A stretch of 64,000 nt of DNA from Acidimicrobiia bacterium (GCA_027494165.1 JAOSJM010000005.1:1452461-1516460); one strand, 5' to 3'; counted from the first letter of the stretch, positions 12,121 through 35,700 are shown. Notes: generated by a model from the letters alone, not told the origin. Numbers and translations: made by a program.

Positions 12121-12300
12121 TCCTCCCCCTACCCCCGGGTTGGCGCGCTTTCGGGGCTGTGGACCCCGATTCCGCACCAACCCGGCGAGGAGGAGGCGCA
12201 CCAACCCGGCGAGGGAGGGTGCGTTCCGGCCGGATGCCGTGCCCGGGTTGGCGCGCTTTCGGGGCTGTGGACCCCGATTCCGCACCAACCCGGCGAGGGG
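12121..12300. repeat. two copies of a 56-bp nested-palindromic intergenic element (locus 1 of the family)
   Basis: cccgggttggcgcgctttcggggctgtggaccccgattccgcaccaacccggcgagg appears at about 12133-12188 and 12239-12295. Outer arms GGGTTGGCGCG/CGCACCAACCC and inner arms CGGGG/CCCCG predict a hairpin. The same core recurs near 33.5 kb and 35.5 kb. Confidence 0.85.
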
Positions 12301-12309
12301 GAGGGTGCG

Positions 12310-13089
12310 TCAGGGGAGGCGGGCGAGGCCGTCCTCGACCGTGGCCAGGCCGTCGGTCGCCAGGGACGCCAGGGCCTCCCCGTCGAGCGTGCCCGTCGGG
12401 GCCGGGCCTTCCCGCAGCACGGCCAGCACCCGGCCCCGCCGCTGGCGGAACGACCCCTCGAAGCGGGCCTGGCGGGCACGCGCCTCGCCGGGCACCGGTC
12501 CCCGGCCCCGGCACCCGCCGCGCAGGGGGCACCCGTCGCAGCGGGGCTCGCCGGCCCGGCAGACCAGGCGCCCAGGTCCATGAGGGCGAGCAGCCGGTCC
12601 CGGGGCGGGAGCCCCGCCGCCACCGCCCGCTGGACCTCCTCGGCCCGGGCGTCGGTGAGCCGCTGCCCCGCCACCCGCTGCACCACCCTGCGCACGTTCA
12701 CGTCGACGGCGGCCCGGTCCGCGCCGTCGGCCTGGGCCGCCACCGCGTCCGCCGTGTACCGGCCGACGCCGGGGAGCTCGGTGAGGTCGTCGGGCCAGCC
12801 CTCGGCGGCGATCCGTGTGGCCGCCTCCCACAGCCGGCGGGCCCGGCGCGGGTAGCCCAACCGGCCCCATGCCGCGATGACCCGGCCCGGCGCGACCGCG
12901 GCCATGGCCGCGGGGCTCGGATAGCGGGCCATGAACGCCTCCCACACGGGGGTGACGCGGGAGACCTGGGTCTGCTGGAGCATCACCTCCGACACCAGCA
13001 CCGCCCACCGGTCGCGCGTCGCGCGCCACGGCAGGTCGTGGCGACCGTGGCGGCGGTACCAGGCCGCCAGCGGGCTCACGGGGCGACGG
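12310..13089 (-). CDS. mutY: HhH-GPD A/G-specific adenine DNA glycosylase (MutY-like, short form), apparent frameshift near 12565
   Basis: The N-terminal part (LAAWYRRHGRHDLPWRATRDRWAVLVSEVMLQQTQV...LTELPGVGRYTADAV) is in one frame. The Fe-S loop (LVCRAGEPRCDGCPLRGGC) is in the next frame. Adding one C in the GGCGCC(C) run gives LMDLGALVCRAG. The GTG start overlaps the pknB stop (GTGA). Confidence 0.7.
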   Translation of the reverse strand, partial: PSPREPAGGLVPPPRSPRPAVARDARPVGGAGVGGDAPADPGLPRHPRVGGVHGPLSEPRGHGRGRAGPGHRGMGPVGLPAPGPPAVGGGHTDRRRGLARRPHRAPRRRPVHGGRGGGPGRRRGPGRRRRERAQGGAAGGGAAAHRRPGRGGPAGGGGGAPAPGPAARPHGPGRLVCRAGEPRCDGCPLRGGCRGRGPVPGEARARQARFEGSFRQRRGRVLAVLREGPAPTGTLDGEALASLATDGLATVEDGLARLP

Positions 13090-14996
13090 TCGTGGTCGTC
13101 GGAGGCGGTGCCGACGTCGTCGTCGTGGGCGGGGTCTGGCCGATCTGGAGGGTGACCGTGTCCCCCAACGGCCAGGTCGTCCCGGCCACCGGGTCCTGGG
13201 CCACGACCTTCCCGGCGCTGGCCGGGTTGGCCACGGTGACCCCGACGACGACGACGTTCGTGAACCCGTCGCCGGCCAGCGCCTCCCGCGCGGCCGACTC
13301 GCTGAGGTTGACCACGTTCGGGACCCGCGCCGTCTCGGGTCCCGACGAGACGAACATCACGATCGTCTCGCCCTTGGGCACGAGCTCGCCGGCGGGCGGC
13401 TCGGTGCGGATCACCTGACCGGTCGCGAAGTCGTCGCTGGGCTCGGTGACCTGGCGAGTCACGAAGCCCCGCGCGCCGAGCTGGTTCGCGGCGGTGACCG
13501 CGTCGAGGCCCTCGACCTCGGGTACCTCGACCTGCTCGGCGACGGCGAGGAACACGGTCACCTCGGTGCCCCGCTCGAGCTCCTCGCCCACCGGGGGGTC
13601 GGTCCGGATGACCGTGCCGACGGGCCGCTCGCTCTCCTCGAACTGCGGGACGAACACCAGCCCGGCGGCCTCGATGGCCGCCCGGGCGTCGTCGGCGCTG
13701 TCGCCGACCACGTTCGGGACCTCGACGGTGCCCTGGCCCGCGCTCACCTTGAGCGTGACCGGCTGCCCCTTGCGGAGCTTGGTCCCCTCGGGAGGCTCCT
13801 GGTCGAAGACCTCGTCCTCGGGGACGTCCTCGTTGGCGACCCGCTCCTCGTCGACCTCGAAGCCGGCCTCCTCGAGGGTGGAACGGGCCTCGTCGATGGT
13901 CAGGCCGACCACGCCGGGGACGTCGGCCGTCGCCGGGCCGGAGTCGTCGCCGAGCTGGTCGACGATGAGGAAGCCGACGAGGCCGGCCAGCAGGAGGAGC
14001 ACGATCACGACGGCGGCGACGGCCCACGGGCTGCGGCGGGGCGGGGGCGGGCCGGTGCTCGTGGGACGGGGGGCCACCGGGGTCGTGGCCAGCGTCGGCG
14101 GGGCCCGCGGCGGTCGAGATCCCCGTGGTGGCCATGGCGATCTCGGCCGTGAGCGGGGTGGCCACGAGCGGGCGCCCCCGGCGGAACCGCAGGAGGTCGG
14201 CCCGCAGGTCCTCGGCCGACTGGTAGCGGGCCTCGAGGTCCTTGGCCATCGCGGTGAGGACGATGCGCTCGAGGTCGGGAGGCGTGCCGGGCATCCGCTG
14301 GGAGGGTGGGACCGGCTGCTCGCGCACGTGCTTGTAGGCCACGGCCACGGGGTTGTCGCCGGTGAACGGCGGGACGCCCGTGAGCATCTCGTAGAGGACG
14401 ACGCCCAGGCTGTAGACGTCGGAGCGGCCGTCGACGGGAAGCCCCTGGGCCTGCTCCGGCGAGAAGTAGGTGGCGGTGCCCATGACCGCGCCGGTCTGGG
14501 TGAGGGCCTCGCTGGTCCCGGCCCGGGCGATCCCGAAGTCCGTCACCTTCACCTGGCCCGACGGTGTGATGAGCACGTTGCCGGGCTTCACGTCGCGGTG
14601 CACGACCCCGCCCCGGTGGGCGTAGGAGAGCGCGCTGCCGATCTCGGCCGCCACGTCGGCGGCGGTCGAGGGGTCCAGGGGCCCGTCGGACCGGATGAGG
14701 TCACGCAGGGAGCGGCCCTCGACGTACTCCATGACGATGAAGTACGTGCCGTCCTCCTGGCCCCAGTCGTAGATGGCGACGATGTTGGGGTGGTTGAGGT
14801 TGGCCGCGGCCTGGGCCTCCCGGCGGAACCGCTCGACGAAGGACGGGTCGCGCGCGAACTCCTGGAACAGGACCTTGAGGGCGACCGGCCGGTCGAGGAG
14901 CTGGTCGCGGGCCAGGTACACCTCGGCCATCCCGCCCCGCGCGATCTCGCGCTGGATCTCGTATCGGTTCGAGAAGGTCCGGGCTCCGAGGGACAT
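13076..14996 (-). CDS. pknB: Ser/Thr protein kinase PknB with TM segment and four PASTA domains, apparent frameshift in the Pro-rich linker (~14100-14200)
   Basis: The kinase domain (YEIQREIARGGMAEVYLARD, HRDVKPGNVLI, DFGIA) is in the frame starting 14996. The TM and PASTA region (ORF 13076-14077, ...VPNVVGLTIDEARSTLEEAGF...) is in another frame. Confidence 0.8.
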
Positions 14997-15074
14997 CCGG
15001 CGACACCCTACCCGGCCGGGAACCCGCCGCCCCGGGTTCCCGTCGCGTCTCGCGGCGTGCCGGCCACGTCCCGG

Positions 15075-16526
15075 TCACACCCCCAGGAGGGCCCGGAGCA
15101 CCCGGGCCGCCACGGGGGCGGCCACCGCGCCACCGGTGGCCTCGTCACCGGCGCTCCCGCCCCGCTCGACGAGGACGGCGACGACGTACTCGGGCGCGTC
15201 GGCCGGGGCGAAGGCGACGAACCAGGCGTGGGGCGGTCCGCCGTCCTGCTGGGCGGTGCCGGTCTTGCCCGCCACCTGCACGCCCGGGATCCGGGCCGCC
15301 GTCCCGGTGCCGCGCTCGACGACCTGGACCATCATCTCGCGGATGGTGGCCGCGGTGGCCGGCGACATCGCCCGGCGCCACGGCTCCGGCGTGATGCGCC
15401 GGACGACCTGGAGGTCGGCGTCCTCGATGCGGTCGGCGACGTGGGGCTCCATGATCACGCCGTCGTTGGCCACCGCGGCGGCGACGAGGGCCATCTGGAG
15501 AGGCGTCACCGCGACGTCGCCCTGACCGATGCCGGCGAAGGCGAACAACGGCTGGTTGCGCTCGAAGGTGCCGGGCTCGGGCCCCGTGCTGGCCACCGCT
15601 CCGGGGCGGAGGTCGAGCGGTGGGGCCGAGCCGATCCCGAAGGCCTCCATGCCGGTGACGAATCCCTCGCCGAGGGCCAGGCCCAGCGCCCCGAAGGTGG
15701 TGTTGCACGAGCGGACGAAGCTCTCGACCAGGTCGCCCCCGCACACCTGGCCACCGAAGTTCCGGAGGGTGTTGGTCGTGAGGGGGAGCTCGATCTCGCG
15801 CACCGAGGGGAACTCGGTGTCGGTCTCGACGACCCCCTGCTCGAGACCCACCGCGGTGGTGACGATCTTGAAGGTGGACCCGGCCGGGTAGATCTCCCGG
15901 TAGGCGCGGGCGAGCGCCGGCTGGTCGGGGTTGGCGTTCAGGAGGGTCCAGTACGCCTCGACCTCGGGCTGGGAGTGGCCGGCCAGGGGCTGGGGGTCGA
16001 ACGACGGGTTCGAGTACATGGCCACGATCGCCCCCGTCCCCGGCTCGAGCACGACGACCGAGCCGTGCTGGTCGCCGAGGGCGTCGCGTGCCACCTCCTG
16101 GATGTCGGCGCGGACGGAGAGCACCACGGTCCCGGTCGCGTCCTGCTCGCCGAAGAGGTCGGCCAGTCCGCGGAGGGCCAGCTCGAGGTCGCGCCCGACG
16201 AGCTCGTCGTTGTAGAAGGCCTCGACGCCCGTGTTGCCGTACAGGAACGACTGGTAGCCGGCGACGTGGGAGAGCAGTGGACCGAGCGGGTAGACCCGCT
16301 GTCGTTCGAGCTCGTCGTCGGTAGGTTCGGAGCGTGCCACCTCACGCCCGTCGGCGGTGAGGATGCGCCCGCGCGGCCGTGCGTAGTCGCGAACGAGCGC
16401 ACGCACGTTGAGGGGGTCGTTCTCGAGCGTCTCGGCCGAGAAGACCTGGAGGTGGACGAGCTGCCCCACCAGGGCGAGGAACAGCACGACGACCGCGACG
16501 CCGACCCGTCGGATGCCGCGGTTCAT
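15075..16526 (-). CDS. pbpA: class B penicillin-binding protein (PbpA, transpeptidase)
   Basis: Starts at ATG 16524-16526 (MNRGIRRVGVAVVVLF...). Transpeptidase motifs STFK, SCN and KTGT are present. The start overlaps the rodA stop (ATGA). Confidence 0.88.
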   Translation of the reverse strand: MNRGIRRVGVAVVVLFLALVGQLVHLQVFSAETLENDPLNVRALVRDYARPRGRILTADGREVARSEPTDDELERQRVYPLGPLLSHVAGYQSFLYGNTGVEAFYNDELVGRDLELALRGLADLFGEQDATGTVVLSVRADIQEVARDALGDQHGSVVVLEPGTGAIVAMYSNPSFDPQPLAGHSQPEVEAYWTLLNANPDQPALARAYREIYPAGSTFKIVTTAVGLEQGVVETDTEFPSVREIELPLTTNTLRNFGGQVCGGDLVESFVRSCNTTFGALGLALGEGFVTGMEAFGIGSAPPLDLRPGAVASTGPEPGTFERNQPLFAFAGIGQGDVAVTPLQMALVAAAVANDGVIMEPHVADRIEDADLQVVRRITPEPWRRAMSPATAATIREMMVQVVERGTGTAARIPGVQVAGKTGTAQQDGGPPHAWFVAFAPADAPEYVVAVLVERGGSAGDEATGGAVAAPVAARVLRALLGV

Positions 16527-19076: not shown

Positions 19077-19101
19077 CCCTCGCTCCCCGGCGCGCCGCCG
19101 T

Positions 19102-19560
19102 TCAACGGACGACCTCCCCGACCGTCTGGCCGAACTGGACCCGGTCGCCCCGTCGCAGGCGGGTGGGGGACTCGATCCGCTGCCCGTTCACGAGGGTCCC
19201 GTTCGTGGAGCCGAGGTCCTCGACCCACGTGTGGCCGTCGCGGGAGAACAGCCGGGCGTGCACCTGCGACACGTACGTGTCGTCGGCGAGCACGAGCGCG
19301 CAGCCCCCGGCCCGGCCCACCGTCAGCTCGTCGCCGATCGTGTGGACCTCGTCGCGCCGTGACGGCGGTTCGAGGAGGCGGAGGCGCGGGCCTCGCCGGG
19401 TGGACCGGCGGCGTCCCTCGGCTGACGGCTCCGGTGGTGCGGGCACGGTGACCGGAGCGGCCCGCAGCTCGAGCGTCACGACCCGGACGACGCGCAGCAG
19501 GAACAGGAACAGCAGCGCGAGGAAGCAGATCTTGAGGACGGTGAGCAACGATTCGGACAT
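19102..19560 (-). CDS. fhaB: FHA-domain membrane protein FhaB/FipA
   Basis: Starts MSESLLTVLKICFLALLFLFLL (TM helix) and ends in an FHA domain (GRAGGCALVLADDTYVSQVHARLF...GSTNGTLVNG). Confidence 0.85.
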   Translation of the reverse strand: MSESLLTVLKICFLALLFLFLLRVVRVVTLELRAAPVTVPAPPEPSAEGRRRSTRRGPRLRLLEPPSRRDEVHTIGDELTVGRAGGCALVLADDTYVSQVHARLFSRDGHTWVEDLGSTNGTLVNGQRIESPTRLRRGDRVQFGQTVGEVVR

Positions 19561-19571
19561 GCCCGCCCCCG

Positions 19572-20225: not shown

Positions 20226-20381
20226 GACCGGCGAGTGTACCGGCGGTCCGGCACGGCCCACGGGGTCTGCCGGCGCGCCCCGCGCGCCCGGTGATCGCGT
20301 TGGCGGGGCGGCGGTGGCGGCATAGCGTGGGGGTGCCGGCGCCATCACCGGCGGCCGGGTCGGCGTCGAACGGGCAGGTCG

Positions 20382-23030
20382 ATGAGAGCGTTCTGGGACG
20401 GGCTCGCCACCGTGATCGCGCGTCGCTTCCGGCTGGTGCTGGTGCTGGCGCTGCTCGCCACCGCCGGTCTGGCGGTCGGGATCCCCCTGCTGGACTTCGA
20501 GACCAGCCAGGTGTCGCTGATCGGCGAGGAGAACCCGGTCGCTCAGGACAACGAGCGGTTCCAGGACGAGTTCGGCGGGGAGCCGATGATCGTGCTCCTG
20601 ACCGCGCAGGAAGGCCACGACGTCCTGGACCTCTTCGACGAGGAGAACCTGCCGAGGCTCCAGGCGTTCGACCAGTCGCTGCGCGACACCGGCCTCTTCC
20701 ATGCCGTGCTCAGCCCGCTCGTCGCGCTCGAGTTCGCCCGCAACCAGATGACGGTCGGCAACGGGCTCTTCGAGGCCGCCTCGGTCCGGGAGCAGCAGCG
20801 GGCCCGGGAGGAGGCGGCCGCCGCGGGCGCCGGCCCCGAGGAGCAGGAGGCCGCCGCCGCGGAGGTGGCCGCCGCGTTCACCGAGCGGTTGCTCGCCCTC
20901 GCCGGCCGGCTCGAGGCCGCCGAGCCGGGGATCACGGCCCGGGCTCTCACCGATCCCGCCTCGATCAGCAACAACGACGAGTTGCTCGAGAACCGCGACC
21001 TCCTCGAGGTGCTGCTCTACGAGGACGAGAACGAGAGCATCGTCCGGCCCGTACTGCGGGACAACTTCCTGGACCGCACCCACGCGGTCACCATCGCCCG
21101 CCTCAACGGGAACGTGGACATCGCCGACATGGGCGCGGCGGCCGACGCGGTGCAGGACGCCGTGCGGGAGGCGGGCTTCGAGGGCTTCGACGTCCTCGCC
21201 ACGGGCCCACCCGAGCTGCTCCAGGACATCAACGACTACCTCCAGGGCGGCATGGCCACCCTCGGCGGCCTCTCGTTCCTGGTGATGATCGTCGTGCTGT
21301 GGTTCGTGTTCCGCGTCCGATGGCGCCTCCTCTCGATGGTGATCGTGATCCTCGGGGCGATCTGGGGCTTCGGGATCATGGGCTACATCGGCCTGCCCCT
21401 CACGCTCATCACGATCTCCGGGCTGCCGATCCTCATCGGGATCGGCGTCGACTTCTCGATCCAGGCCCACAGCCGCTTCGAGGAGGAGATCGACCACGAC
21501 GGAGACGCCGAGTCGGCCGTCCGTCGGGTGATGCGCTGGCTCACCCCCGCGCTGGCGGTGGCGATGATCGCGGCGGTGGCCGGCTTCCTCGCCCTCCAGG
21601 TCTCCGAGGTGCCGCTCATCCGCGACTTCGGCGTCATGCTCGCCCTCGGGATCTTCGCCCTCTTCGTCGCCGGGATCACCGTCCCGACCTCGATCCTCGT
21701 GTGGCGCGAGCGCCGGCACCCCACCCCCGCCGGCGCGGCCAGCGTCCCCCACGGCGTGCTCGAGCGGATCGTCCGGTGGATGTGCTTCAGCGCCCGGACC
21801 TTCATCCTCCCGGTCGTGCTGGCCGGGCTCGGCGTCATCTTCGTGGGCCTGGCCCTGGAGGGCCGCTTCACCATCCAGACCGACCCCGAGGAGTGGATCC
21901 CCCAGGACGGCCGGACGGTGCGGAGCCTCGAGGAGCTCCGCGAGGACACGGGGTTCTCCAGCGAGCTGCAGCTCCTCATCGAGGCCGACGACGTGACCGC
22001 GACGCCGGTGAGCGAGTGGATCCAGGTCTTCACGATCGAGCAGGCCGGCTACGCGAACACGCTCGAGGCTCCCGAGATCGAGGGCAAGCACGAGGCCCTC
22101 ATCCGGGGCACCAGCCTCCCGGCCGTGGCCATGAGCGTGACCGGCGTGCCGCCCGGTCAGGAGGAGGTCGAGCTGCTGCTCGGCGACGCCCTGGAGGAGG
22201 ACCCCGAGTACACCGTCGCCCCGCGCGACTTCGTCGTCCAGTTCATGAGTTCGGACCTGACGAGCACCGCGCTCATCTTCCCGATCACCGACGTCACGCT
22301 CGGGGAGCGCGAGGAGCTCGTCGACGAGATGCTGGCCGACCTCGAGCTGCCACCCGGCTTCGACGCCGAGGTGGGCCTGACCGGGCCGCCGGAAGGCGTG
22401 TCGGTCCTGCCGGCCGGGCTCGTGTACGTGGGCGTCGAGCTGGTCGACGCGCTGGAGGCGAACCGGGCGCTCATGACCTGGCTCGCCCTCGGGGCCGTGG
22501 CGCTGTGGCTGCTGATCCGTTACCGGCGGATCGTGACCACGCTGCTCCCCCTCGTGCCGGTCACGATCGCGGTCGGGCTGTCCTCCCTGGTGATCTTCGC
22601 CACCGGCATCGAGCTGAGCCCGCTCACGAGCGTCACCGGCCCGCTCGTCATCGCCACCTGCACCGAGTTCTCGGTGCTGATCCTGGCCCGGTACGTGGAG
22701 GAGCGCGAGCGGGGGCGCGACCCCGACGACGCCGTCGCCCACGGCGCGGTGCGCATCGGCCGGGCGTTCGTGGCCTCGGGTCTCACGACGGTGGGCGGCT
22801 TCGGGGTGATGGCCTTCTCGGCGTTCCCGCTGCTGCGGGACTTCGGGATCGTCGTGGCGCTCAACGTGCTCGTGGCCCTGGTGTCCGCGCTGGTCGTGCT
22901 GCCGCCGCTGCTCATGTGGGCCGACCGGACGCCGTGGCTGAAGACGTTCTCCCCCGGGGAACGGCCCGGGATGCTCGCGGGGGCGGACGAGGTGGCGCCG
23001 GCCCGGACCGGCGGGCCCTCGCCTGGCTAG
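20382..23030 (+). CDS. MMPL-family RND-type membrane transporter
   Basis: 882-aa ORF with two 6-TM bundles separated by periplasmic domains. The sequence follows the MMPL pattern (e.g. GIGVDFSIQ, TGPLVIATCTEF). Confidence 0.85.
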   Translation: MRAFWDGLATVIARRFRLVLVLALLATAGLAVGIPLLDFETSQVSLIGEENPVAQDNERFQDEFGGEPMIVLLTAQEGHDVLDLFDEENLPRLQAFDQSLRDTGLFHAVLSPLVALEFARNQMTVGNGLFEAASVREQQRAREEAAAAGAGPEEQEAAAAEVAAAFTERLLALAGRLEAAEPGITARALTDPASISNNDELLENRDLLEVLLYEDENESIVRPVLRDNFLDRTHAVTIARLNGNVDIADMGAAADAVQDAVREAGFEGFDVLATGPPELLQDINDYLQGGMATLGGLSFLVMIVVLWFVFRVRWRLLSMVIVILGAIWGFGIMGYIGLPLTLITISGLPILIGIGVDFSIQAHSRFEEEIDHDGDAESAVRRVMRWLTPALAVAMIAAVAGFLALQVSEVPLIRDFGVMLALGIFALFVAGITVPTSILVWRERRHPTPAGAASVPHGVLERIVRWMCFSARTFILPVVLAGLGVIFVGLALEGRFTIQTDPEEWIPQDGRTVRSLEELREDTGFSSELQLLIEADDVTATPVSEWIQVFTIEQAGYANTLEAPEIEGKHEALIRGTSLPAVAMSVTGVPPGQEEVELLLGDALEEDPEYTVAPRDFVVQFMSSDLTSTALIFPITDVTLGEREELVDEMLADLELPPGFDAEVGLTGPPEGVSVLPAGLVYVGVELVDALEANRALMTWLALGAVALWLLIRYRRIVTTLLPLVPVTIAVGLSSLVIFATGIELSPLTSVTGPLVIATCTEFSVLILARYVEERERGRDPDDAVAHGAVRIGRAFVASGLTTVGGFGVMAFSAFPLLRDFGIVVALNVLVALVSALVVLPPLLMWADRTPWLKTFSPGERPGMLAGADEVAPARTGGPSPG

Positions 23031-23199
23031 CGGGGGTACAGACACCCGAGACCCAGGTTCCGCTGACTCGGGTGTCCCTACCGTCGCTCAGCGGGGGTAC
23101 AGACACCCGAGACCCAGGTTCCGCTGACTCGGGTGTCCCTACCGTCGCTCAGCGGGGGTACAGACACCCGAGACCCAGGTTCCGCTGACCCGGGTGTCC

Positions 23200-23216
<17 letters not shown>
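23031..23216. repeat. 3 x 62-bp perfect tandem repeat, each unit containing a 10-bp-stem hairpin
   Basis: The unit agcgggggtacagacacccgagacccaggttccgctgactcgggtgtccctaccgtcgctc occurs three times, with one substitution in copy 3. The internal inverted repeat is GACACCCGAG...CTCGGGTGTC. It lies between the convergent MMPL and livF genes. Confidence 0.9.
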
Positions 23217-23939
<723 letters not shown>

Positions 23940-26874: not shown

Positions 26875-28465
26875 CTAGTGGACCTTGCAGTCGCTGGTGA
26901 GCTCGATGTCCTCGCCGGTGGCGTCGGGCGGGTCGACCGTGCAGAGGGTGCCCCACCCGCCTTCGAGGATCTCGGTGACGGTGTCGGGGAAGGCCCGGCG
27001 GTTGGCCTCGAGGGTCGGGCGCACGAGGTGGGTGGGGCCGACGTAGTCGGGGAAGGCGGGCAGCCACACCTCCTCCCACTCGCGGCCGAGCTGGTAGGGA
27101 GGGTCGGTCTCGGCGGGGCCCGTGTGGCGCTCGAGGGTGATGAGGACGAGCTGGTCCTCGGTGATGGCGAGGTGGCGGTCGGGTTCGAAGCCGTACTCGA
27201 GGCCGGCGAAGGTGGTCGTGAGGCCCTCGAGGGCGGTGACGACGGCCTCCCGGTCGGTGGTCCCGGCCCGGCGGACGGCCTCGACGAGGGCCCACAGGCC
27301 GTTGGCGGGGGACTCCTCGCCCCCGGTGGCGGGGATGCCGAGGTAGTCCTGCATCCAGGTGCGGATGGGGAAGGTCGGCAGGCCGATGAGGCCGCCCATG
27401 TGCCAGGTCGTGAGGCTCCCGGTCTTCGCCGCGTCGCCGGCCAGCTCGGCCCACTTCTTCTCGCCGGTGCCGCCGGGCCAGCCCATCACGTGCGGGCGCC
27501 AGGCCGGGCCCTTGGCCGTGGGGGGTGTCGACGTAGCCGGCACCGAGGGCGTCGAGCCCCTTCACGATCCCCGCGACGCTCTCCGCGGCTCCCCAGAGGC
27601 AGAGCGCCTGGGGAGCCGACTGCTGGAGCCGCTGGAGCTGGGCCCCGAAGTCGGCGGTGAAGAGGGTGAACTCCTCGACGCCGGCGACCGGCATGTCGTG
27701 CTTGGCGACCGCGTGCTCGAAGCTCTCCCGGAACGTCTGGCTGATGGTGCTGTCGTAGGCCAGGCCCACGCTCGCGTAGCCCCGGTCCTCCTTGGCGTAG
27801 CGGACCAGGAGGTCGAAGGCCATCTTGTCGGGCTGGATGAACTGGAAGATCGAGCGCTCGGGGACGTCGGGGTAGAGGAGCCCCTGGGACCACATGTCGT
27901 AGAAGACCGAGATGATCGGGATGCCGTCACGGGCGATCTGGGGGCGGGCCTCCTTGAGCCCGATGGGCGTGCACCACAGGATGCCGACGACGTCGGGGTC
28001 GGCGACGAGCTGGGCGTAGGCCCGGTTCGTGGCGTCGACCAGCTCCTCGGCCTTGGCGTTCACGATCTCGAGGGTGACCTTCGTGCCCTTGACGAGGCCC
28101 TCGCGCTCGATGTGCTCCATGGCGGCCCGGAGCGAGCGGTCGACGACGTCGCCGACGAACTGGCCGAGGCCCTCGAGGGGGGCGATGACGCCGATCTTCA
28201 GGCTGGACGGCAGGGTGGTGCCGCCGTCGCCTCCGCCGCTCCCGCCGGTCCCCGTCGTGCTCCGGGTGCCCCCCGTGCTCGGGCTCCCGCCGGAGTCCCC
28301 GCCGTCGCCGTCGCCGCCGCCGCACCCGGCGAGAGCGCCCCAGGCCCCGATCAGGGCCATCCCGGCCAGGCTGCTGCGGGCGGCCCACTCCATGAACACC
28401 CGCCGGTCGACGGGGCGGCGGATCAGGTCGTCGGCGCTGATGCGGATGGGCTCGTGCTCGGCCAC
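26875..28465 (-). CDS. ABC transporter substrate-binding lipoprotein (LivK/amide-binding family), paralog 1, apparent frameshift near 27520-27525
   Basis: Tat/lipoprotein signal RRVFMEWAARSSLAGMALIGAWGALAGCGG followed by a periplasmic binding fold. The C-terminal 222 aa (ORF 26875-27543) are in another frame. Removing one G from the six-G run reconstitutes YVDTPTAKGPAWRPHV, which matches the paralog. Confidence 0.75.
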
Positions 28466-28577
28466 GGCCGCCTCCTGTGTGGGGCCCCCGGAGGGCGCGG
28501 ATCCGCTGGAAGTCGGGCGAGTGTGACCTATGCGACGATCGGGTGCAAGAGGGCGAGCCCGACCCGCCGTCGCCTGC

Positions 28578-30134
28578 TCAGTGGATCTTGCAGTCGTTGC
28601 TGAGCTCGATGTCCTCGCCGGTGGCGTCGGGCGGGTCGACCGTGCAGAGGGTGCCCCACCCGCCTTCGAGGATCTCGGTGACGGTGTCGGGGAAGGCCCG
28701 GCGGTTGGCCTCGAGGGTCGGGCGCACGAGGTGGGTGGGGCCGACGTAGTCGGGGAAGGCGGGCAGCCACACCTCCTCCCACTCGCGGCCGAGCTGGTAG
28801 GGAGGGTCGGTCTCGGCGGGACCCGTGTAGCGCTCGAGCGACACCAGCACCACCTGGTCCTCGGTGATGGCGAGGTGGCGGTCGGGTTCGAAGCCGTACT
28901 CGAGGCCGGCGAAGGTGGTCGTGAGGCCCTCGAGGGCGGTGACGACGGCCCGCCGGTCGGTGGTCCCGGCCCGGCGGACGGCCTCGACGAGGGCCCACAG
29001 GCCGTTGGCGGGGGACTCCTCGCCCCCGGTGGCGGGGACGCCGAGGTAGTCCTGCATCCAGGTGCGGATCGGAAGCGAGGGCAGGCCGATGAGGCCGCCC
29101 ATGTGCCAGGCGGTGAGGGTCCCGGTCTTCGCCGCGTCGCCGGCCAGCTCGGCCCACTTCTTCTCCCCGGTCCCGCCGGGGGAGCCGAGGACGTGCGGGC
29201 GCCACTGCGAGCCCCGGGCCGTGGGCGTGTCGACGTAGCTCGCGCCGATCGCGTCGAGGCCCTGGACGATCCCGGCCGTGTTCTCGGCCAGGCCCCAGAC
29301 GAAGAGGCAGTGGCTTCCCTGGTCCCCCAGCCGCTGGAGCTGGGCGCCGTAGTCGGCGCTGAAGATGTTGAACTGCTCGACGCCGGCCACCGAGAGGCCG
29401 TGCTTGTCGATGGCCCGCTCGAACCCCGTCCGGTAGACCTCGCCGATGCTGCTGTCGTAGAAGAGCCCGGCGCTGGCGTAGCCGCGGTCCTCCTTCGCGT
29501 AGCGCATGAGGACGTCCATGGCCATCGAGTCGGGCATGAGGAGCTGGAACACCGAGCGCTCCGGCCCGTCGGGGTAGAGCCAGTCCTCGGACCAGGCGTC
29601 GTAGAAGACCGAGATCACCGGGATGCCGTCGCGGGCGATCTGGGCCCGGGACTCGGGGAGCCCGACGGGCGAGCACCAGAGGATGCCGACGACGTCGGGG
29701 TCGGCGACGAGCTGGGCGTACGCCTTGCCCGTGGCGTCGGCCAGCTCCTCGGCCTTGGCGTTCACGATCTCGTAGGAGACCTTCGTGCCCTTGACGAGGC
29801 CCTCGCGCTCGATGTGCTCCATGGCGGATCTCAGGGAGTGGTCGACGATGTCGCCGATGAACTTCCCGAGCCCCTCCATGGGCGCGATCACCCCGATCTT
29901 GAGGGTCGGCGGGAGCGTCCCGCCGTCGCCCTCGCCGTCGCCGGTGCCGGTCCCGGTGGTCCGCCCGGTCCGGTCGGAGTCGTCGTCGCCGCAGCCGGAC
30001 AGCCCGCCCCACGCCCCGAGCAGGGCCATCCCGGCCAGGCTGGTGCGCCCGGCCCACCGGAGGAACACCCGGCGGTCCACCGGGTGGCGGACCACGTCGT
30101 CGGCGGGGACCCGGAGAGGCTCGTGCTCGGACAT
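28578..30134 (-). CDS. ABC transporter substrate-binding lipoprotein (LivK/amide-binding family), paralog 2 (intact)
   Basis: ATG 30132-30134 gives MSEHEPLRVPADDVVRHPVDRRVFLRWAGRTSLAGMALLGAWGGLSGCG and a 518-aa protein. Its 3' ~650 bp are about 95 % identical in DNA to paralog 1. Confidence 0.85.
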   Translation of the reverse strand: MSEHEPLRVPADDVVRHPVDRRVFLRWAGRTSLAGMALLGAWGGLSGCGDDDSDRTGRTTGTGTGDGEGDGGTLPPTLKIGVIAPMEGLGKFIGDIVDHSLRSAMEHIEREGLVKGTKVSYEIVNAKAEELADATGKAYAQLVADPDVVGILWCSPVGLPESRAQIARDGIPVISVFYDAWSEDWLYPDGPERSVFQLLMPDSMAMDVLMRYAKEDRGYASAGLFYDSSIGEVYRTGFERAIDKHGLSVAGVEQFNIFSADYGAQLQRLGDQGSHCLFVWGLAENTAGIVQGLDAIGASYVDTPTARGSQWRPHVLGSPGGTGEKKWAELAGDAAKTGTLTAWHMGGLIGLPSLPIRTWMQDYLGVPATGGEESPANGLWALVEAVRRAGTTDRRAVVTALEGLTTTFAGLEYGFEPDRHLAITEDQVVLVSLERYTGPAETDPPYQLGREWEEVWLPAFPDYVGPTHLVRPTLEANRRAFPDTVTEILEGGWGTLCTVDPPDATGEDIELSNDCKIH

Positions 30135-30325
30135 GACCCCGTCCCTTCGCTGGCCCGTCGGGGGCCGAGGGGTGGCCGCCGGCCCGCGTGGCGGGATCAT
30201 GGCGGAGGCGAGGCGGGGTCGCAAGGACCCGTGTCGTGGCGCCGATCCGGCGATCGGATCGTGCGCCGGGCCGACCGGGGCCATGGAGGAGCGGCCCCCG
30301 TCGCCTGGTAGATTGCGACGCTCGC

Positions 30326-30409
<84 letters not shown>

Positions 30410-30580
30410 CTCTCCGGTCCGGCCCGCGGTGCCCGCGCGCTCCGGGCGCGCGAGCGGGCCTACGCTCTCGCCTCGTGGACCGGTCCGGGCGATCCGCGTG
30501 GCCCCACGGGTGTGCGGTCCGTCGCCGCACGACGCGGGATCCCGGCGCCTCCCGAACGGAAGCCGCTCCGGGAGCGCGAC

Positions 30581-30983
30581 CGTGATCCGCCTCGTGGCGT
30601 CCGGCGTCGTCAGCCTCGTCGCCAGCGCGGTCGCGCTCGTCGTCGGGGCCGCCGTGCTCGACGGCATGGCGCTCGAGCCAGACGGCTTCGTGGTCGCGGT
30701 GCTCGTGTTCACCGTGGTCGAGGTCATCGTGGAGCCCCTCATCCGTCAGACGGCGTTCCGGAGCGCGCCCGCCCTGCTCGGGAGCAGCGCGCTCGTCGCG
30801 ACCCTCGCCAGCCTCGTCGTCACGGTGGCCGTCACGGACGGGTTGCGGATCTCGGACGCCGGGACGTGGGTGCTGGCGACGGTGCTGGTCTGGGCCGTGG
30901 CGCTCGTCGCCCGGTTCCTGCTGCCCTTCGTGGTGTTCAAGCGCGTCTTCGCGGAGCAGCGGGCGGCCGGCCACCGCCGCTGA
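30581..30983 (+). CDS. small 4-TM membrane protein (phage-holin-4-like / DUF superfamily), hypothetical
   Basis: GTG start gives VIRLVASGVVSLVASAVALVVGAAVLDG...VVFKRVFAEQRAAGHRR. The upstream part of the ORF overlaps the tRNA and is not coding. Confidence 0.5.
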
Positions 30984-31217
30984 GCCCCGGGCGTCGGCGT
31001 CGCCACCGGCGACGGCTCCCGGGTGTCTCCGGCCCCGTCGGGCGGCGGGGGGCACACCCGGGTGGCCCGGGCGCGGTGCATCCTCCCGGGGTGTCCGTTA
31101 GCGTCTCGTCCGGCCGGTCCGGCGCGCGGGCGACGCCGGCCCGGCCGTCGGACCTGCCGTCGGACCAGCCGGGCCGCCGCAGACCGGCGAGCGTGGATGA
31201 CGGGGAGGAGCCACACG

Positions 31218-31604
31218 ATGGCCGCAGGGAGCGCAGGGCTGCACGAGGAGGCCGGGAAGCTCCGGCCCGAGACGATCGAGCGACACCGGGCCGTCGTCTC
31301 GCTGATGGAGGAGCTCGAAGCCGTCGACTGGTACGACCAGCGGGTCGACGCGTCCGGGGACCCGGAGCTCGCCGAGATCCTCGCCCACAACCGCGACGAG
31401 GAGAAGGAGCACGCCGCCATGCTCCTCGAGTGGCTCCGCCGGCGCGACCCCGCCCTCGACGGGCACCTGCGGACCTACCTCTTCACCGAGGCGCCGGTCA
31501 CCGAGATCGAGGAGGCCGAGGAGGGCGGCGGCGGTGACGGAGGAGCCGAAGGGGATGCTGCCGCCGGTCTCGGGATCGGCTCGCTCCGGGAGGGTGCCCG
31601 ATGA
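31218..31604 (+). CDS. encapsulin-associated ferritin-like cargo protein (EncFtn) with C-terminal cargo-loading peptide
   Basis: RBS GGGGAGGAG precedes ATG 31218. The ferritin-like E..H motifs are ETIERHRAV and DEEKEHAAM. A Gly-rich linker is followed by GLGIGSLREGAR, which matches the family-1 encapsulin targeting peptide consensus. The stop overlaps the encapsulin start (ATGA). Confidence 0.8.
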   Translation: MAAGSAGLHEEAGKLRPETIERHRAVVSLMEELEAVDWYDQRVDASGDPELAEILAHNRDEEKEHAAMLLEWLRRRDPALDGHLRTYLFTEAPVTEIEEAEEGGGGDGGAEGDAAAGLGIGSLREGAR

Positions 31605-32401
31605 ACCGCCTCCTGCGCGACGCGGCCCCGATCTCCGGCGCGGCCTGGGCGGCGGTCGACGACGAAGCCCGCCGGGCCCTACGCCACTTCCTCGCCGCCC
31701 GCCGGTTCGTGGACTTCAGCGGCCCTCGCGGGTTCGACCTGGCCTCGATCCCGGTCGGCCGGCTCGGGTCGACCGGGGCCTGGCTCGGTGAGGGCGTCGA
31801 CGTCGCGCTGCGCGAGAGCCAGCCCGTCGTCGAGACCAGCGTCGACCTCACCCTGCGCCGGGCCGGGCTCGAGACGATCGAGCGCGGGGGCGAGCCCGAC
31901 CTCGAGCCCGTGCTGGAGGCCGCCCGCCGGGCGGCCCTCGCCGAGGATCGGGCCGTCTTCCAGGGCATCGACGAGCGCGACCTGCCGGGGATCGTCCCGG
32001 CGTCGCCGCACGAGCCGATCGGCATCGGCGACGACTACACCCAGTACCCCACCCTCGTGACGAGGGCGGTCGAGCAGCTCCGGCGGGCCGGGGTGGGCGG
32101 TCCCTACGGCATCGTGCTCGGACCCCGCTGCCACGCCGGCGTGCTGGAGACCACCGAACGGGGCTACCCGGTCATCGAGCACCTCAAGCTCGTGCTCGAC
32201 GGGCCGATCGTCCCCGCCGACACCGTGTCGGGGGCCGTGGTCCTGAGCGCGCGGGGTGGCGACTACGAGCTCGTGAGCGGGGTCGACTTCGAGATCGGCT
32301 ACCGCTCCCACGACGCCGAGACGGTCACGCTCTTCCTCCGGGAGACCTTCGCCTTCCGGGTGCTCGAGCCGGCCGCCGCGGTCGCGCTCGTCCATCCCTG
32401 A
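31601..32401 (+). CDS. enc: family 1 encapsulin nanocompartment shell protein (HK97 fold, Cfp29/linocin-like)
   Basis: The 266-aa protein aligns along its whole length with mycobacterial Cfp29 (MNRLLRDAAPISGAAWAAVDDEARR...GGPYGIVLGPR...GYPVIEHL...IGYRSHDAETVTLFLRETFAFRV). Confidence 0.88.
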   Translation: MNRLLRDAAPISGAAWAAVDDEARRALRHFLAARRFVDFSGPRGFDLASIPVGRLGSTGAWLGEGVDVALRESQPVVETSVDLTLRRAGLETIERGGEPDLEPVLEAARRAALAEDRAVFQGIDERDLPGIVPASPHEPIGIGDDYTQYPTLVTRAVEQLRRAGVGGPYGIVLGPRCHAGVLETTERGYPVIEHLKLVLDGPIVPADTVSGAVVLSARGGDYELVSGVDFEIGYRSHDAETVTLFLRETFAFRVLEPAAAVALVHP

Positions 32402-32578
32402 GGCGCACCCGCGGTCCCGGGCTCGGCCGGCGATCCCGCCGGCCGGCGCCGGCCGCCCGGCGCGTCCACTCGCTCCCCGAGGTGTCGTCGGCCCCCGCCG
32501 GGGGGGCGGGTCGGCTCCCTGCTCCGGTGACGAGCGGCGGACGGTGGCAGGCTGGTGCCGCACCGACGAGGGGACGCC

Positions 32579-33490
32579 ATGAGGCTGGGGATCTCGCTGC
32601 GCAGCGCGCACGCCGTCGACGACGCCCGCGTCGGCGCACGCTGGATGGTCGAGCGGGCGGTCGTGGCGCGCGAGGCCGGGCTCGACTCGCTCTTCGTCGG
32701 GGACCACCACGCCGTGCCCGTCCCCTACTACCAGAACACCGCGATCCTCGGTCGCCTGCTCGCCGAGTGGGGGGACCGGCCGGCGGGCGCGCTCTACCTC
32801 CTGCCCCTGTGGCACCCGGTGCTGGTGGCCGAGCAGGTCGGCACGCTGGCGGCGATCGCCCGGGGACGGTTCGTGATGCAGTGCGCGGTCGGCGCCGGGG
32901 CCGGGCAGTTCGGGGCGCTCGGCGTGGCCCCGGCCGACCGGGCGTCCCGCATGGAGGCGGCCCTCGACGTGATCCGCCGGCTCCTCCGCGGCCAGGAGGT
33001 GACCTCGGACGGGCCGTGGCGCATCGGACCGACCCGGATCGCGCCCCTGCCGCCCGAGCCGGTCGAGGTGTGGGTGGGAGGTCATGCCCCACCGGCCGTC
33101 GACCGGGCCGCTCGGCTCGGGGACGGGTGGCTGGCCGGGCCGGAGCTGCTCCCCGCCGAGGCCCGGGACCTGCTCGAGGCGTACCGGGAGCGCTGTCACG
33201 TCCACGGCCGGACCCCGAGCGCGATCGCCATCCGCCGCGACGTCCACGTGGGGGCCGATCCCGCCGACGCCCGCCGGGTCGCCGAACGCGTGCTGGAGCG
33301 GGGCTACCGGGGGTTCCGGCCCGGGGTCTGCGTCGTGGGCGGGGTGGAGGAGGTCGCCGGGGAGCTCCGGGACCTCGGGTCGATGGGCTACACGGACGTG
33401 ATCGTGCGCCACCTCGCCGACGACCAGGGCGAGGCGCTCGCCTCGATCGCCCGGCTGCGCGAGGTGCGGGCCGCGCTCATCGACGCCTGA
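32579..33490 (+). CDS. LLM-class (luciferase-like) F420/flavin-dependent oxidoreductase
   Basis: MRLGISLRSAHAVDD...LDSLFVGDHH...VWVGGHAPPAVDRAARLGDGWL matches the bacterial luciferase-like TIM barrel pattern. Confidence 0.8.
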   Translation: MRLGISLRSAHAVDDARVGARWMVERAVVAREAGLDSLFVGDHHAVPVPYYQNTAILGRLLAEWGDRPAGALYLLPLWHPVLVAEQVGTLAAIARGRFVMQCAVGAGAGQFGALGVAPADRASRMEAALDVIRRLLRGQEVTSDGPWRIGPTRIAPLPPEPVEVWVGGHAPPAVDRAARLGDGWLAGPELLPAEARDLLEAYRERCHVHGRTPSAIAIRRDVHVGADPADARRVAERVLERGYRGFRPGVCVVGGVEEVAGELRDLGSMGYTDVIVRHLADDQGEALASIARLREVRAALIDA

Positions 33491-33514
33491 GGGCGCGCGG
33501 GAGGGCCCCTGGTC

Positions 33515-33795
33515 TCCTGCCGGGTCGGCACGTTTTCGGGGCTGTGGACCCGGTTCCGCTCCAACCCGGCCGAAATGACATGGGGTCGGCGCGCCGGGGC
33601 TCTGGACCCCGATTCCGCTCCAACCCGGTTGAGTGACATGCCCGGGTCGGCGCGTGCGGGGCCGGTCTCCTGCCGGGTTGGCGCGCTTTCGGGGCTGTGG
33701 ACCCCGTTTCCGCTCCAACCCGGTTGAAATGACATGCCCGGGTTGGCGCGTGTTCGGGGTTCTGGACCCCGATTCCGCTCCAACCGAGCGCTCCG
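33515..33795. repeat. tandem array of 4-5 degenerate ~72-bp nested-palindromic units (locus 2 of the family)
   Basis: Units of the form CGGGT(C/T)GGCGCG...CGGGGCTGTGGACCCCGATTCCGCTCCAACCCGG+TTGAAATGACATGCC. One unit carries an extra half-copy. The units are contiguous and have no unique spacers. Confidence 0.85.
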
Positions 33796-33798
33796 GGC

Positions 33799-34701
33799 TC
33801 AGGGCTCGACGAGGACACCGACGACGTCGTGGACCGCGTAGGCCGTGCCGGCGGAGAGGCGCGCGCTCCCGACGGGGACCGGACGGCCCGCGATGCCGGG
33901 GCCGGTCAGGACCACGTCCGCGGTCCAGGTCGCCCGGACCGTGAGCGAGCGGGAGCCCCGGATCTCGAAGTCGAGCCGCGCCGCGGGGTCCCCCGCCCGG
34001 CCCGGCAGCTCGGAGGCCTCGGCGGTCTCGCCGCGGTCGGTCTCCCATGCCACGGCGGCGAGGCGCGCCGTGCCGGTGACCGTCCACGGCCCGATCGACA
34101 CCGCGACCGCCACCTCGGTCGGGCCGTCGTACCACAGGTCCGTGGCCATCCCCACCAGCCCGACGGGCGGGCTGGTCCCGGTGCGCGGCGGCGGGACCTG
34201 GGACAGGGCCCGGGCCCAGATCTCCCCGATCGACGGGACCGGTGGCAGCGGAGGTGGGGCGGGAGGCTCCCCGCCGAGGTCGTAGGGCACGCAGACCGTC
34301 TCGGACGCGAGCAGGTTCCCGGCCAGGTCGAGGGTGAGGAGGCGGTACGACCAGCCCAGGGCGTGCTCCGGGGGTCCGGTGTCGCAGAGGTGGTCGAGCG
34401 GCGTCCCCCCGGCTCCCGGGGAGTCGGCCGCGACCCACACGTGCTGCACGACGTCCGGACCACCCGCCCCGCCCGGGCCCACCGCCTCCCAGGTCCCCGA
34501 GCCGCCGGACCCGGCTGTCCCGGGAATCCCGATCTCCACCGTGATCGTGCCGTCGGGGTCGAGGCCGCCCCCGTGGGACGGTTGCCCGTCGGCGAGCGCG
34601 GTCCGGGGGACGAGGAGGACGATGGCCGCGGAGACCACTGCGGCGGCGACCGACGTCGTGCGCCGGGCGGGGCCGGGCGGGTCGGTGGCCCGTCCGGTCA
34701 C
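33799..34701 (-). CDS. secreted hypothetical protein
   Basis: GTG start with signal peptide VTGRATDPPGPARRTTSVAAAVVSAAIVLLVPRTALA. About 300 aa, Pro/Gly-rich with two Cys. The start overlaps the upstream lipoprotein stop (GTGA). Confidence 0.55.
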   Translation of the reverse strand: MTGRATDPPGPARRTTSVAAAVVSAAIVLLVPRTALADGQPSHGGGLDPDGTITVEIGIPGTAGSGGSGTWEAVGPGGAGGPDVVQHVWVAADSPGAGGTPLDHLCDTGPPEHALGWSYRLLTLDLAGNLLASETVCVPYDLGGEPPAPPPLPPVPSIGEIWARALSQVPPPRTGTSPPVGLVGMATDLWYDGPTEVAVAVSIGPWTVTGTARLAAVAWETDRGETAEASELPGRAGDPAARLDFEIRGSRSLTVRATWTADVVLTGPGIAGRPVPVGSARLSAGTAYAVHDVVGVLVEP

Positions 34702-35399
34702 AGCTCCACCACCAGGTCCTCGACGGCCGCCGACCAGTCCGCGATCCGCCAGCGTCCGCCCCGGTCGGCGACGAGCACGACGGTCCAGGCGTACGGGGTC
34801 CCCCGGGGCCACTCCTCGACGAGCTGCCCGCTCGCGTCGACGATGCGCTCGCTCTCGTGACGGTCGACGAGACGGAGGCTCGCGGCGTCGGGGAGGACCG
34901 ACAGGACCTCCACCGACAGGACCTGGTACCCCGCGTCGGCCCAGCGGTACCCGCGCTCGACGAGGAGCTCCTGCCAGGCGAGCTTGTGCTCGTAGGGGAG
35001 TGTCCCGGGGACGTAGACCTCGTCGAGGAGCGACGGGTCGGGGTTCTCCCCGATCCATCGTGACGCGAGGATCAGCGACGCCAGGATCGCCGCGTGGTCG
35101 TCGCCGGTGTTGACGATGCGTGGGCGGGGGATGCCGTGCAGCGAGCCGGCCGGGAGCGGTCGTGACAGGTCGGGCGCCGGCGCGGCCGTGACCGCGGTGG
35201 TCGGCGTCGTGTCCGGCGCCGGCGTCGACGCGGGCCCGGGCGCGGCATCGCCGGTCGTCGTGGAGGTCGCCGGTGGGGCCGGGACGGGACGCCTCGCCGG
35301 ATCGGCGCCCGCCCCGGCCCCGCGGCCGCAGCCCGCGGCGATCGCCACGAGGACGATCCATCCCAGAGCGCCTCTGAGTGCACCAGGGTGCGTCACCAT
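34698..35399 (-). CDS. hypothetical lipoprotein
   Basis: Lipobox LVAIAAGCG with a Pro/Thr-rich linker. Conserved-looking C-terminal domain (EVYVPGTLPYEHKLAWQELLVERGYRW...). Confidence 0.55.
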   Translation of the reverse strand: MVTHPGALRGALGWIVLVAIAAGCGRGAGAGADPARRPVPAPPATSTTTGDAAPGPASTPAPDTTPTTAVTAAPAPDLSRPLPAGSLHGIPRPRIVNTGDDHAAILASLILASRWIGENPDPSLLDEVYVPGTLPYEHKLAWQELLVERGYRWADAGYQVLSVEVLSVLPDAASLRLVDRHESERIVDASGQLVEEWPRGTPYAWTVVLVADRGGRWRIADWSAAVEDLVVEL

Positions 35400-35449
35400 G
35401 CCCCGCTCCGCCGGTCAGGACACCAGTCGCGGCGAGCCTACCCGGTTGT

Positions 35450-35700
35450 CCCAATCCGGTCGAGAGGGATGAACCGTCCCCGGTCGGGTTGGTGCGGGAT
35501 CGGGGTCGAGAACCCCGAAGCGCGCCAACCCGGGATGGAGGGAGATGGAGGGAGATGGAGGAGCGTGCCAACCCGGCGAGACGACGGGTCCGGTTGGTGC
35601 GGGATCGGGGTCGAGAACCCCGAAAGCGCGCCAACCCGGGATGGAGGAGATGGAGGGAGATGGAGGAGCGCGCCAACCCGGGATGGAGGGGGGGACGGAG
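35450..35700. repeat. two ~110-bp units of the palindromic element in opposite orientation, each followed by a (GGAGGGAGAT)n-like purine microsatellite (locus 3 of the family)
   Basis: ggttggtgcgggatcggggtcgagaaccccgaa(a)gcgcgccaacccgggatggagggagatggag... occurs twice. It is the reverse complement of the 12.1-kb and 33.5-kb core. Confidence 0.85.

Follow-up and report, generated by a model that had tools for sequence, protein, structure and literature searches.

Repetitive extragenic palindromic (REP) sequences lie mainly downstream of open reading frames (ORFs), between unidirectional and convergent genes, where they are plausibly RNA elements, and a REP in the strict sense has, at one of its ends, a GTAG or CGTC tetranucleotide that stays unpaired (PMC3733652). 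REPs and the bacterial interspersed mosaic elements (BIMEs) are also binding sites of several proteins, as stated in the abstract of PMC2817692. In Mycobacterium, TRIT is a conserved palindromic motif that lacks a U-tract and is found in 147 copies at gene termini of this one genus (Gardner et al. 2011; PMC3152330). Here, we describe a family of 52-nt imperfect palindromes located at three intergenic loci of a 64,000-nt stretch of an Acidimicrobiia bacterium genome (GCA_027494165.1, JAOSJM010000005.1:1452461-1516460), hereafter the window. We consider it about an even chance that this is a lineage-restricted family of extragenic palindromes, similar to REP/BIME or TRIT, that is predicted to form an RNA hairpin at the 3′ ends of genes and was dispersed by a copy mechanism.

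A 47-nt IUPAC pattern of the core, allowing up to three mismatches, matched the window five times and found no match in 100 dinucleotide shuffles. We then ran a covariance model built from the aligned copies (R1; 52 positions and 18 pairs) on the window with the filters off. Exactly eight full copies of the 52-nt unit were recovered with 63-82 bits (E 6e-12 to 4e-16), while the opposite strand of the same eight sites reached only 23-41 bits and the best unrelated match 16 bits (E 0.2). This score gap indicates that the family is real, that its orientation is defined and that the 64 kb contain no additional degenerate copies. The original prediction of a repeated core at three intergenic loci, made from the sequence, was thus confirmed. 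All eight copies were intergenic and fell within 12134-12293 (locus 1), 33519-33788 (locus 2) and 35484-35640 (locus 3). In the same three gaps there were also a truncated copy and, at 12196, 35563 and 35668, three right arms without a core (GCGYRCCAACCCGG; solo arms). The 9-mer CCAACCCGG occurred 10 times on the plus strand of the window, every time inside the three loci and in three cases as part of a solo arm. Repeat finding grouped these sites as one family and identified locus 3 as the reverse complement of loci 1 and 2 (88-92% complementarity). The copies differed by 2-35%, showed 62-98% identity to the reference copy, had unique flanks and were separated by linkers that differed by locus.

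Within each locus, R1 placed every core in a single orientation, forming direct arrays. Start-to-start spacings between cores were 58, 61, 65, 95, 105 and 108 nt, mostly not multiples of three. Specifically, locus 1 consisted of an internal tandem duplication of a 63-nt unit (98% identity), locus 2 of a dimer unit of ~135 nt (~87% identity) and locus 3 of a 105-nt unit (95% identity). The family was therefore locally amplified by tandem duplication at all three loci, and the eight copies represent about three independent placements. Neither coding signal nor unique spacers were found in the copies or in the intervals, where microsatellites or short, shared linkers were present.

The unit is a nested imperfect palindrome that can be written as CCCGGGTTGG-C-GCG-CTT-TCGGGG-(7-nt loop)-CCCCGA-TTC-CGC-A/T-CCAACCCGG. 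Its outer stem of 12-13 bp, CCGGGTTGG-x-GCG / CGC-x-CCAACCCGG, includes one position that is mismatched in every copy (a C facing A or T when read on the forward strand) and encloses a symmetric 3x3 internal loop, a GC inner stem of 5-6 bp and a 7-nt loop. Optional CT-rich 5′ and GA-rich 3′ extensions lengthen the stem. The 14-nt arm GCGYNCCAACCCGG was the most invariant part of the alignment; the loop reads CTGTGGA, TTCTGGA or TTCTCGA depending on the copy. A resemblance of the loop to a DnaA box (GTCCACA, reverse strand) was discarded because of this variation. The core was predicted to fold at between -22 and -35 kcal/mol in the forward orientation and at between -28 and -42 kcal/mol in the reverse one, and the first copy with its extensions (12121-12200) reached -48.3 kcal/mol on the plus strand and -60.8 kcal/mol on the minus strand. 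When compared to shuffled sequences, seven out of eight strand/locus folds presented z-scores between -3.3 and -6.9, the remaining one being the plus strand of 12236-12310 (z -1.2). Folding on both strands, as the original prediction had proposed, therefore gave stable hairpins on each, and its description of the units as non-coding, hairpin-forming and distinct from CRISPR also held, as judged by the folding z-scores, the shared linkers and the lack of cas domains among the window ORFs.

The position of the copies relative to genes was determined on a rough gene map based on GC content at third codon positions (GC3) and a Pfam scan of ~50 ORFs of the window, whose GC content is 70-78%. Locus 1 lies between the convergent pabA (stop 12052) and HhH-GPD glycosylase (stop 12310) genes, and the two cores previously announced downstream of pabA were found at 12134-12185 and 12242-12293. 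Locus 2 lies between a gene for a luciferase-like (LLM) oxidoreductase (stop 33490) and a convergent gene for a 279-aa secreted protein (stop 33799). At locus 3, both flanking genes are on the minus strand and encode a glucosaminidase (stop 35711) and a 233-aa protein (start 35399 or 35348). Convergent or unrelated flanking genes had been proposed for the units; the flanks are convergent at loci 1 and 2 and co-directional at locus 3. The genes flanking the three loci are housekeeping genes. Copies were located 10-81 nt downstream of stop codons (+10, +14, +28, +29 and +81 nt), and at each of the three loci the forward orientation matched the sense strand of the upstream gene, only locus 3 being informative in this respect. 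In total, the family occupied two of the ~9 convergent junctions of the window and one co-directional junction. The other convergent junctions carried unique GC-rich hairpins that also lacked U-tracts, so that the repeat occupies the site at which this genome usually places terminator-type hairpins. Canonical U-tract terminators were at chance level (two found versus 1.6 expected in 20 kb), no T-run followed the hairpin on either strand at any locus, and a terminator scan gave no match at the three loci.

These observations are consistent with a role at the 3′ ends of transcripts. When the upstream gene is transcribed, the repeat would form a highly stable hairpin in the RNA (core, -22 to -42 kcal/mol; with extensions, down to -61 kcal/mol). 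Such a hairpin could act as a barrier that stabilises the mRNA against 3′-5′ exonucleases, or as a pause or roadblock that would aid factor-dependent termination and insulate convergent genes. A 3′-end barrier is likelier than a canonical intrinsic terminator because there is no U-tract. RNA-hairpin roles had already been suggested and are plausible. As for its origin, the core may have reached the separate loci by copy-and-paste, whichever the enzyme, or by recombination; replication slippage promoted by the hairpin, or unequal crossing-over, might then have given rise to arrays, solo arms and microsatellite tails.

Several points weigh against this explanation. The family is represented by only three independent loci, all within 64 kb. 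The reverse strand folded at least as well as the forward one in the eight copies, by 0.2-7 kcal/mol, because the variable positions form G-U pairs on the reverse strand and C-A oppositions on the forward strand, and at locus 3 this reverse strand is antisense to both flanking genes. No pair was altered on both sides among the copies, and their 92% pairing equalled that of the shuffle control; the copies are too similar for covariation to be informative, and it is palindromy by itself that supports the predicted fold. A purely RNA-hairpin role does not account for the solo arms and the conserved loop sequences. Finally, according to the title of a 2014 article by Czyz et al., mycobacterial RNA polymerase reportedly requires a U-tract at intrinsic terminators, which speaks against termination by the hairpin on its own. 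The family, from an uncultured member of the Acidimicrobiia, would provide a handle on transcript ends in high-GC genomes that lack U-tract terminators, and its arrays could be used as strain-typing (variable-number tandem repeat) markers in metagenomes. It would also extend the small extragenic palindromes, studied almost entirely in Proteobacteria and mycobacteria (TRIT, MIRU), to another actinobacterial class. None of these implications would overturn current understanding.

The detailed architecture of the loci is as follows. In locus 1, pairing between a CT-rich 5′ extension (CTCCTCCCCCTAC, 12121-12133, plus strand) and the GA tail (12186-12196) makes for a longer hairpin at core c1 (CCCGGGTTGGCGCGCTTTCGGGGCTGTGGACCCCGATTCCGCACCAACCCGG, 12134-12185, plus strand), which scored 81.7 bits (E 4e-16) and folded with -35.0 kcal/mol forward and -41.8 kcal/mol reverse. 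It is followed on the same strand, at 12186-12225, by the GA tail CGAGGAGGAGG, the solo right arm GCGCACCAACCCGG (12196-12209) and a second GA tail, CGAGGGAGGGTGCGTT. The forward core c2 (12242-12293) is identical to c1 (81.7 bits); core plus tail (63 nt) are 98% identical to those of c1, and its GA tail (12294-12309, plus strand) reaches the glycosylase stop codon.

Locus 2 lies on the plus strand and begins directly past the LLM oxidoreductase stop codon with a degenerate left-arm fragment and the leader GGTCTCCTG (33492-33518), homologous to 33649-33671 in a local alignment of the two halves of the locus. Four full forward cores and one truncated copy come next. Core c3 (33519-33569, 66.1 bits) is degenerate, with a T>C change in the left arm and a 1-nt deletion in the inner stem, and precedes the linker CCGAAATGACATG; c4 (33580-33628, 63.1 bits) has lost 3 nt of the internal loop and precedes the linker TTGAGTGACATG. 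The truncated c5 (33640-33671) retains the left arm CCCGGGTCGGCGCGTGCGGGGCC (33640-33661) and the leader GGTCTCCTG, which precedes cores at this locus, as seen in the sequence and by local alignment. Core c6 (33672-33723, 78.8 bits) is followed by the linker TTGAAATGACATG, and c7 (33737-33788, 73.5 bits) ends 10 nt short of the stop codon of the convergent 279-aa gene. The tandem array expected at this locus was thus present, but with a spacing of 58-65 nt, or 95 nt across the truncated copy, rather than ~72 nt; similarly, the linker that had been assigned to every core, of the TTGAAATGACATG (TGACATG) type, followed three out of four.

At locus 3, the two reverse-orientation cores that had been anticipated were found by R1 on the minus strand, c9 at 35484-35534 (73.6 bits, compared to 39.1 bits on the plus strand) and c8 at 35589-35640 (74.6 bits). 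Read on the plus strand, the region between them (35534-35588) contains the purine microsatellite (GATGGAGGGA)x2.8, detected by TRF, the solo arm GCGTGCCAACCCGG (35563-35576) and a 12-nt spacer. Beyond c8, the segment 35640-35700 contains the microsatellite (GATGGAGGA/GATGGAGGGA)x3, also detected by TRF, the solo arm GCGCGCCAACCCGG (35668-35681) and a G-rich tail that ends 10 nt before the glucosaminidase stop codon. On the plus strand, loci 1 and 3 both present GGAGG-type purine tracts and solo arms after the cores. We considered whether the core interior was flipped between loci 1 and 3 with the tails kept fixed; a symmetric arrangement of CT tail, core and GA tail, with partial tails, suffices and no inversion is needed. 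The purine tails at 12294-12325 and 35640-35700 contain runs of three to seven G residues that could form plus-strand G-quadruplexes (e.g. GGGGGAGGGTGCGTCAGGGGAGGCGGG), and their opposite strand carries CCUCC-rich, anti-Shine-Dalgarno-like tracts.

Outside the window, no family member was recovered from the collections searched. Rfam at gathering thresholds returned no family, its sole hit being a genuine tRNA, and below threshold only generic hairpin matches to miRNA models. Two patterns, one specific for the loop and one for arm plus stem, had no match in JGI metagenome contigs; pattern searches of viral contigs and distant blastn searches of plasmids and phages also had none. Six-frame translations of the core, compared with 5.8 billion predicted proteins in search of spurious ORFs over other copies, found none. 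A loose pattern from the 3′ half of the core gave at least 88 matches in genome contigs, with no true family member among the matches listed. An Ilumatobacteraceae metagenome-assembled genome (MAG) produced a match of 22 bits that was rejected, as it had no complementary left arm. Likewise, four contigs of relatives that were found through the 233-aa protein of locus 3 (~59 kb in all; non-syntenic, with 44-56% identity in that protein) contained neither the family nor an analogous dispersed palindrome. Taken together, the sequence searches support a family that is probably restricted to its lineage.

Among the alternatives, we regard as rather unlikely a purely selfish, non-autonomous element of the MITE (miniature inverted-repeat transposable element) or REPIN type, moved in trans by an enzyme acting on the single-stranded DNA hairpin, e.g. 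a HUH Y1 enzyme of the IS200/IS605 type or a REP-associated tyrosine transposase (RAYT), its position at gene ends reflecting tolerated insertions. Such mobility would explain why three unrelated loci, whose flanks differ, share the same 52-nt core and why the core is found in either orientation; the arms also resemble terminal inverted repeats. By analogy, an imperfect palindrome with a conserved mismatch is the type of asymmetry that hairpin-recognising HUH enzymes could use; recognition of hairpin asymmetry is established for IS608 and RAYT. However, the flanks of the eight copies revealed no consistent tag, since GTAG appeared only by c1 (minus strand, 5 nt from the arm) and CGTC only 8 nt from c8. 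No target-site duplication was visible at the borders of any locus, the arrays are direct instead of alternating and 52 nt is below the typical size of a MITE. In addition, the Pfam scan identified no transposase, integrase, reverse transcriptase or Cas domain among the ~50 window ORFs. With no consistent tag, direct arrays and no transposase in the window, the suggestion that the units are substrates of a RAYT was not upheld. RAYTs are typically single-copy genes.

Protein-binding or topological sites acting at the DNA level are less probable still. According to this explanation, the arm GCGYNCCAACCCGG would be a half-site for a nucleoid-associated protein, a gyrase-type enzyme or a recombinase, and half-sites would be placed as inverted pairs (in the core) or alone where transcription-driven supercoiling accumulates; BIMEs of E. 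coli bind gyrase and IHF. The invariance of the arm, the conservation of the three solo arms, equal to that of the core arms, and the location of two out of three loci at convergent junctions all fit this idea. Nevertheless, the inner stem and the loop equal the arms in conservation, something that a half-site model does not call for, and no candidate for the bound protein was identified. Slippage is moreover a simple explanation for the solo arms, since each of them sits in a duplicated arm-plus-tail unit.

Two further explanations involve recombination. It would be surprising if the 14-nt arms were recognised by a hairpin- or site-specific system of recombination, hitherto undescribed, limited to this Acidimicrobiia lineage and unrelated to RAYT, that copies the 52-nt element and moves or inverts cassettes lying between inverted copies, such as the genes for the 233-aa and 279-aa proteins; in such a system, the conserved mismatch and the asymmetric loops would confer strand and orientation specificity. 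Slightly more doubtful is a simpler version in which the arms bracket one movable cassette, that of the 233-aa and 279-aa genes, which recombination between the repeats would have moved or inverted. Locus 2 (forward) and locus 3 (reverse) are indeed inverted repeats, 88-90% complementary and ~1.8 kb apart, that enclose exactly these two genes. The 233-aa protein is 100% identical to MCZ7527915.1 (M5U14_16965), encoded on a contig of 1,537,480 bp; neither protein has a Pfam match, and the pairing of the two is conserved among other Acidimicrobiia. Four contigs from related Acidimicrobiia carry the homologues (43-56% identity) after infB and near rbfA, in a different neighbourhood. These relatives are distant, however, and differences in synteny are unsurprising. 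Moreover, there is just one such case, any two adjacent loci will be mutually inverted with a probability of 50%, locus 1 brackets nothing, no direct repeats were found at the outer borders and there is no recombinase nearby.

Hardly credible is the possibility that the repeat mimics a tRNA 3′ end or derives from a tRNA-type attachment site. The 3′ half (CGGGG-N7-CCCCG-ATTCCGC-A-CCA) is spaced as a T-arm, a 7-nt acceptor strand, a discriminator and CCA, the discriminator coinciding with the stem position that is always mismatched, and ~20 genuine tRNA 3′ ends, in unrelated genomes, were among the 88 loose-pattern matches listed. In tRNAs, the T-loop is conserved as T54-Psi55-C56-R57-A58, and the loops of the family lack purine 57 and A58. 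The CCA is base-paired inside the outer stem, the Rfam tRNA and tmRNA models did not match even at E<=10 or E<=5, ARAGORN detected only the genuine tRNA-Leu at 30326-30410 and the window has no integrase. The structure models and the T-loop mismatch largely refute this explanation, which we rejected.

Regarding the rest of the window, its genes include the crgA-pabA / pknB-pbpA-rodA-pstP-fhaB-fhaA cluster, conserved in actinobacteria, as well as transporters, metabolic enzymes and an encapsulin with EncFtn cargo. The encapsulin (Linocin_M18) gene directly follows the EncFtn-like cargo gene at 31023-32401, one gene upstream of locus 2. Tandem repeats were also found outside the family. A separate hairpin repeat at 23029-23214 comprises three copies of a 61-nt unit (99-100% identity), each with an imperfect stem of 16 bp (-31.9 kcal/mol, z -3.1), and takes up precisely the space that separates the convergent MMPL (stop 23030) and ABC ATPase (stop 23200) genes. 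At 7978-8206, a whole convergent junction is duplicated in tandem (116 nt, 98% identity), the unit containing a histidine-kinase stop codon, the GGTGCCCGCGGGCACC hairpin and the last ~80 nt of a 3-hydroxyacyl-CoA dehydrogenase gene. The last codons and the stop of pabA are likewise duplicated, in 2.2 copies of a 35-nt unit (12024-12101, 90% identity) that lie immediately upstream of locus 1. Together with the duplications inside the three loci, these cases suggest that gene-end segments with hairpins are readily duplicated in tandem in this genome, or in its assembly. A further 126-nt tandem repeat (3283-3926; ~5 copies, 72-85% identity) lies inside a minus-strand ORF of 445 aa with a VanY domain (3266-4603) and is presumably a protein-level repeat.

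Probable frameshifts were present at 13076-14996, where the pknB kinase domain and the transmembrane/PASTA half are in different frames, and at 12310-13400, where the HhH-GPD glycosylase changes frame near 12500-12700. In addition, 26878-28577, a paralogue of the solute-binding protein at 28581-30281, has internal stops. The probable frameshifts suggest the indel errors of a long-read MAG, and single-base indels between repeat copies should therefore be taken with caution; the exact copy numbers of the arrays could also be wrong through assembly. The window does show several such frameshifts, as well as some tandem duplications that are nearly identical. As an explanation for the repeats themselves, however, errors in the assembly or polishing of an error-prone long-read MAG are nearly negligible, since a diverged 52-mer shared by three loci in two orientations would not arise artefactually and the copies, 62-98% identical to the reference one, have unique flanks and locus-specific linkers and, with intact genes on either side, sit in the interior of a 1.54-Mb contig, contrary to the collapsed or duplicated contig ends that the original prediction had named as a possible source.

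We finally compared the family with the described classes of elements. It differs from canonical intrinsic terminators, having the hairpin but not the U-tract, and from CRISPR arrays, since there are no unique spacers and no cas domains. Integron attC core sites read RYYYAAC / GTTRRRY; the arms GTTGGCG, GTTGGTG and CACCAAC violate the third R and first R positions, no integrase is present in the window and attC was rejected. With MIRUs (mycobacterial interspersed repetitive units) it shares tandem intergenic arrays, units of 50-100 nt, an actinobacterial host and a potentially variable copy number. MIRUs are reportedly non-palindromic and located within operons, and carry small ORFs whose ends overlap with the stop and start codons on either side (Supply et al. 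1997), while this family is palindromic, its spacings are mostly not multiples of three, it has no overlapping small ORFs and no ORF logic is visible. Of the two resemblances initially proposed, the one to MIRU thus failed and the one to REP/BIME stood with regard to the gene-end niche. Like REPINs and MITEs, the unit has two inverted arms around a spacer, forms one long predicted hairpin, is non-coding and occurs in both orientations. Its arms, however, are not themselves palindromic REPs, no cognate transposase was found in the window and, compared to MITEs, which are usually 100-400 bp long and combine terminal inverted repeats with a target-site duplication, it has the inverted arms but no direct repeats at the borders and measures 52 nt, or ~80 nt with tails.

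The closest likeness is to TRIT and REP/BIME. TRIT also belongs to a high-GC actinobacterial host, forms a U-tract-free palindromic stem-loop at gene termini, is largely bidirectional and lineage-restricted, and in both cases the conserved sequence hints at a partner factor (PMC3152330). TRIT is placed within the coding sequence (position about -8 from the stop codon), whereas the present copies start 10-81 nt past the stops, form tandem arrays with tails and show no sequence similarity to TRIT. The tight placement at the stop codon and genus-wide occurrence of a TRIT-like terminator were not seen here, in a comparison that covers one genome. REPs and BIMEs are likewise short, GC-rich imperfect palindromes, extragenic and mostly downstream of ORFs at convergent or unidirectional junctions, clustered with variable linkers into mosaics and specific to a species or lineage (PMC3733652 and PMC2817692). 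The unit described here differs in being a nested double hairpin of 52 nt instead of 20-40 nt and in its host, a member of the Acidimicrobiia (Actinomycetota), the survey of tagged REPs having no mention of Actinobacteria. In BIMEs, regularly spaced REPs alternate in orientation and are joined by conserved linkers; this family has linkers (TGACATG-type at locus 2, GGAGG-type at loci 1 and 3) but a direct orientation. Strict-sense REPs also flank the gene of a cognate RAYT (a Y1 HUH transposase) and are extragenic, with more than 100 copies in a genome; here, 8 of 8 copies were intergenic, at three loci in 64 kb. With no GTAG or CGTC tag, no alternation and no RAYT in the window, it is not a RAYT-type REP. 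Altogether, the element is not itself new in kind: it is a new family of ordinary extragenic palindromic repeats.

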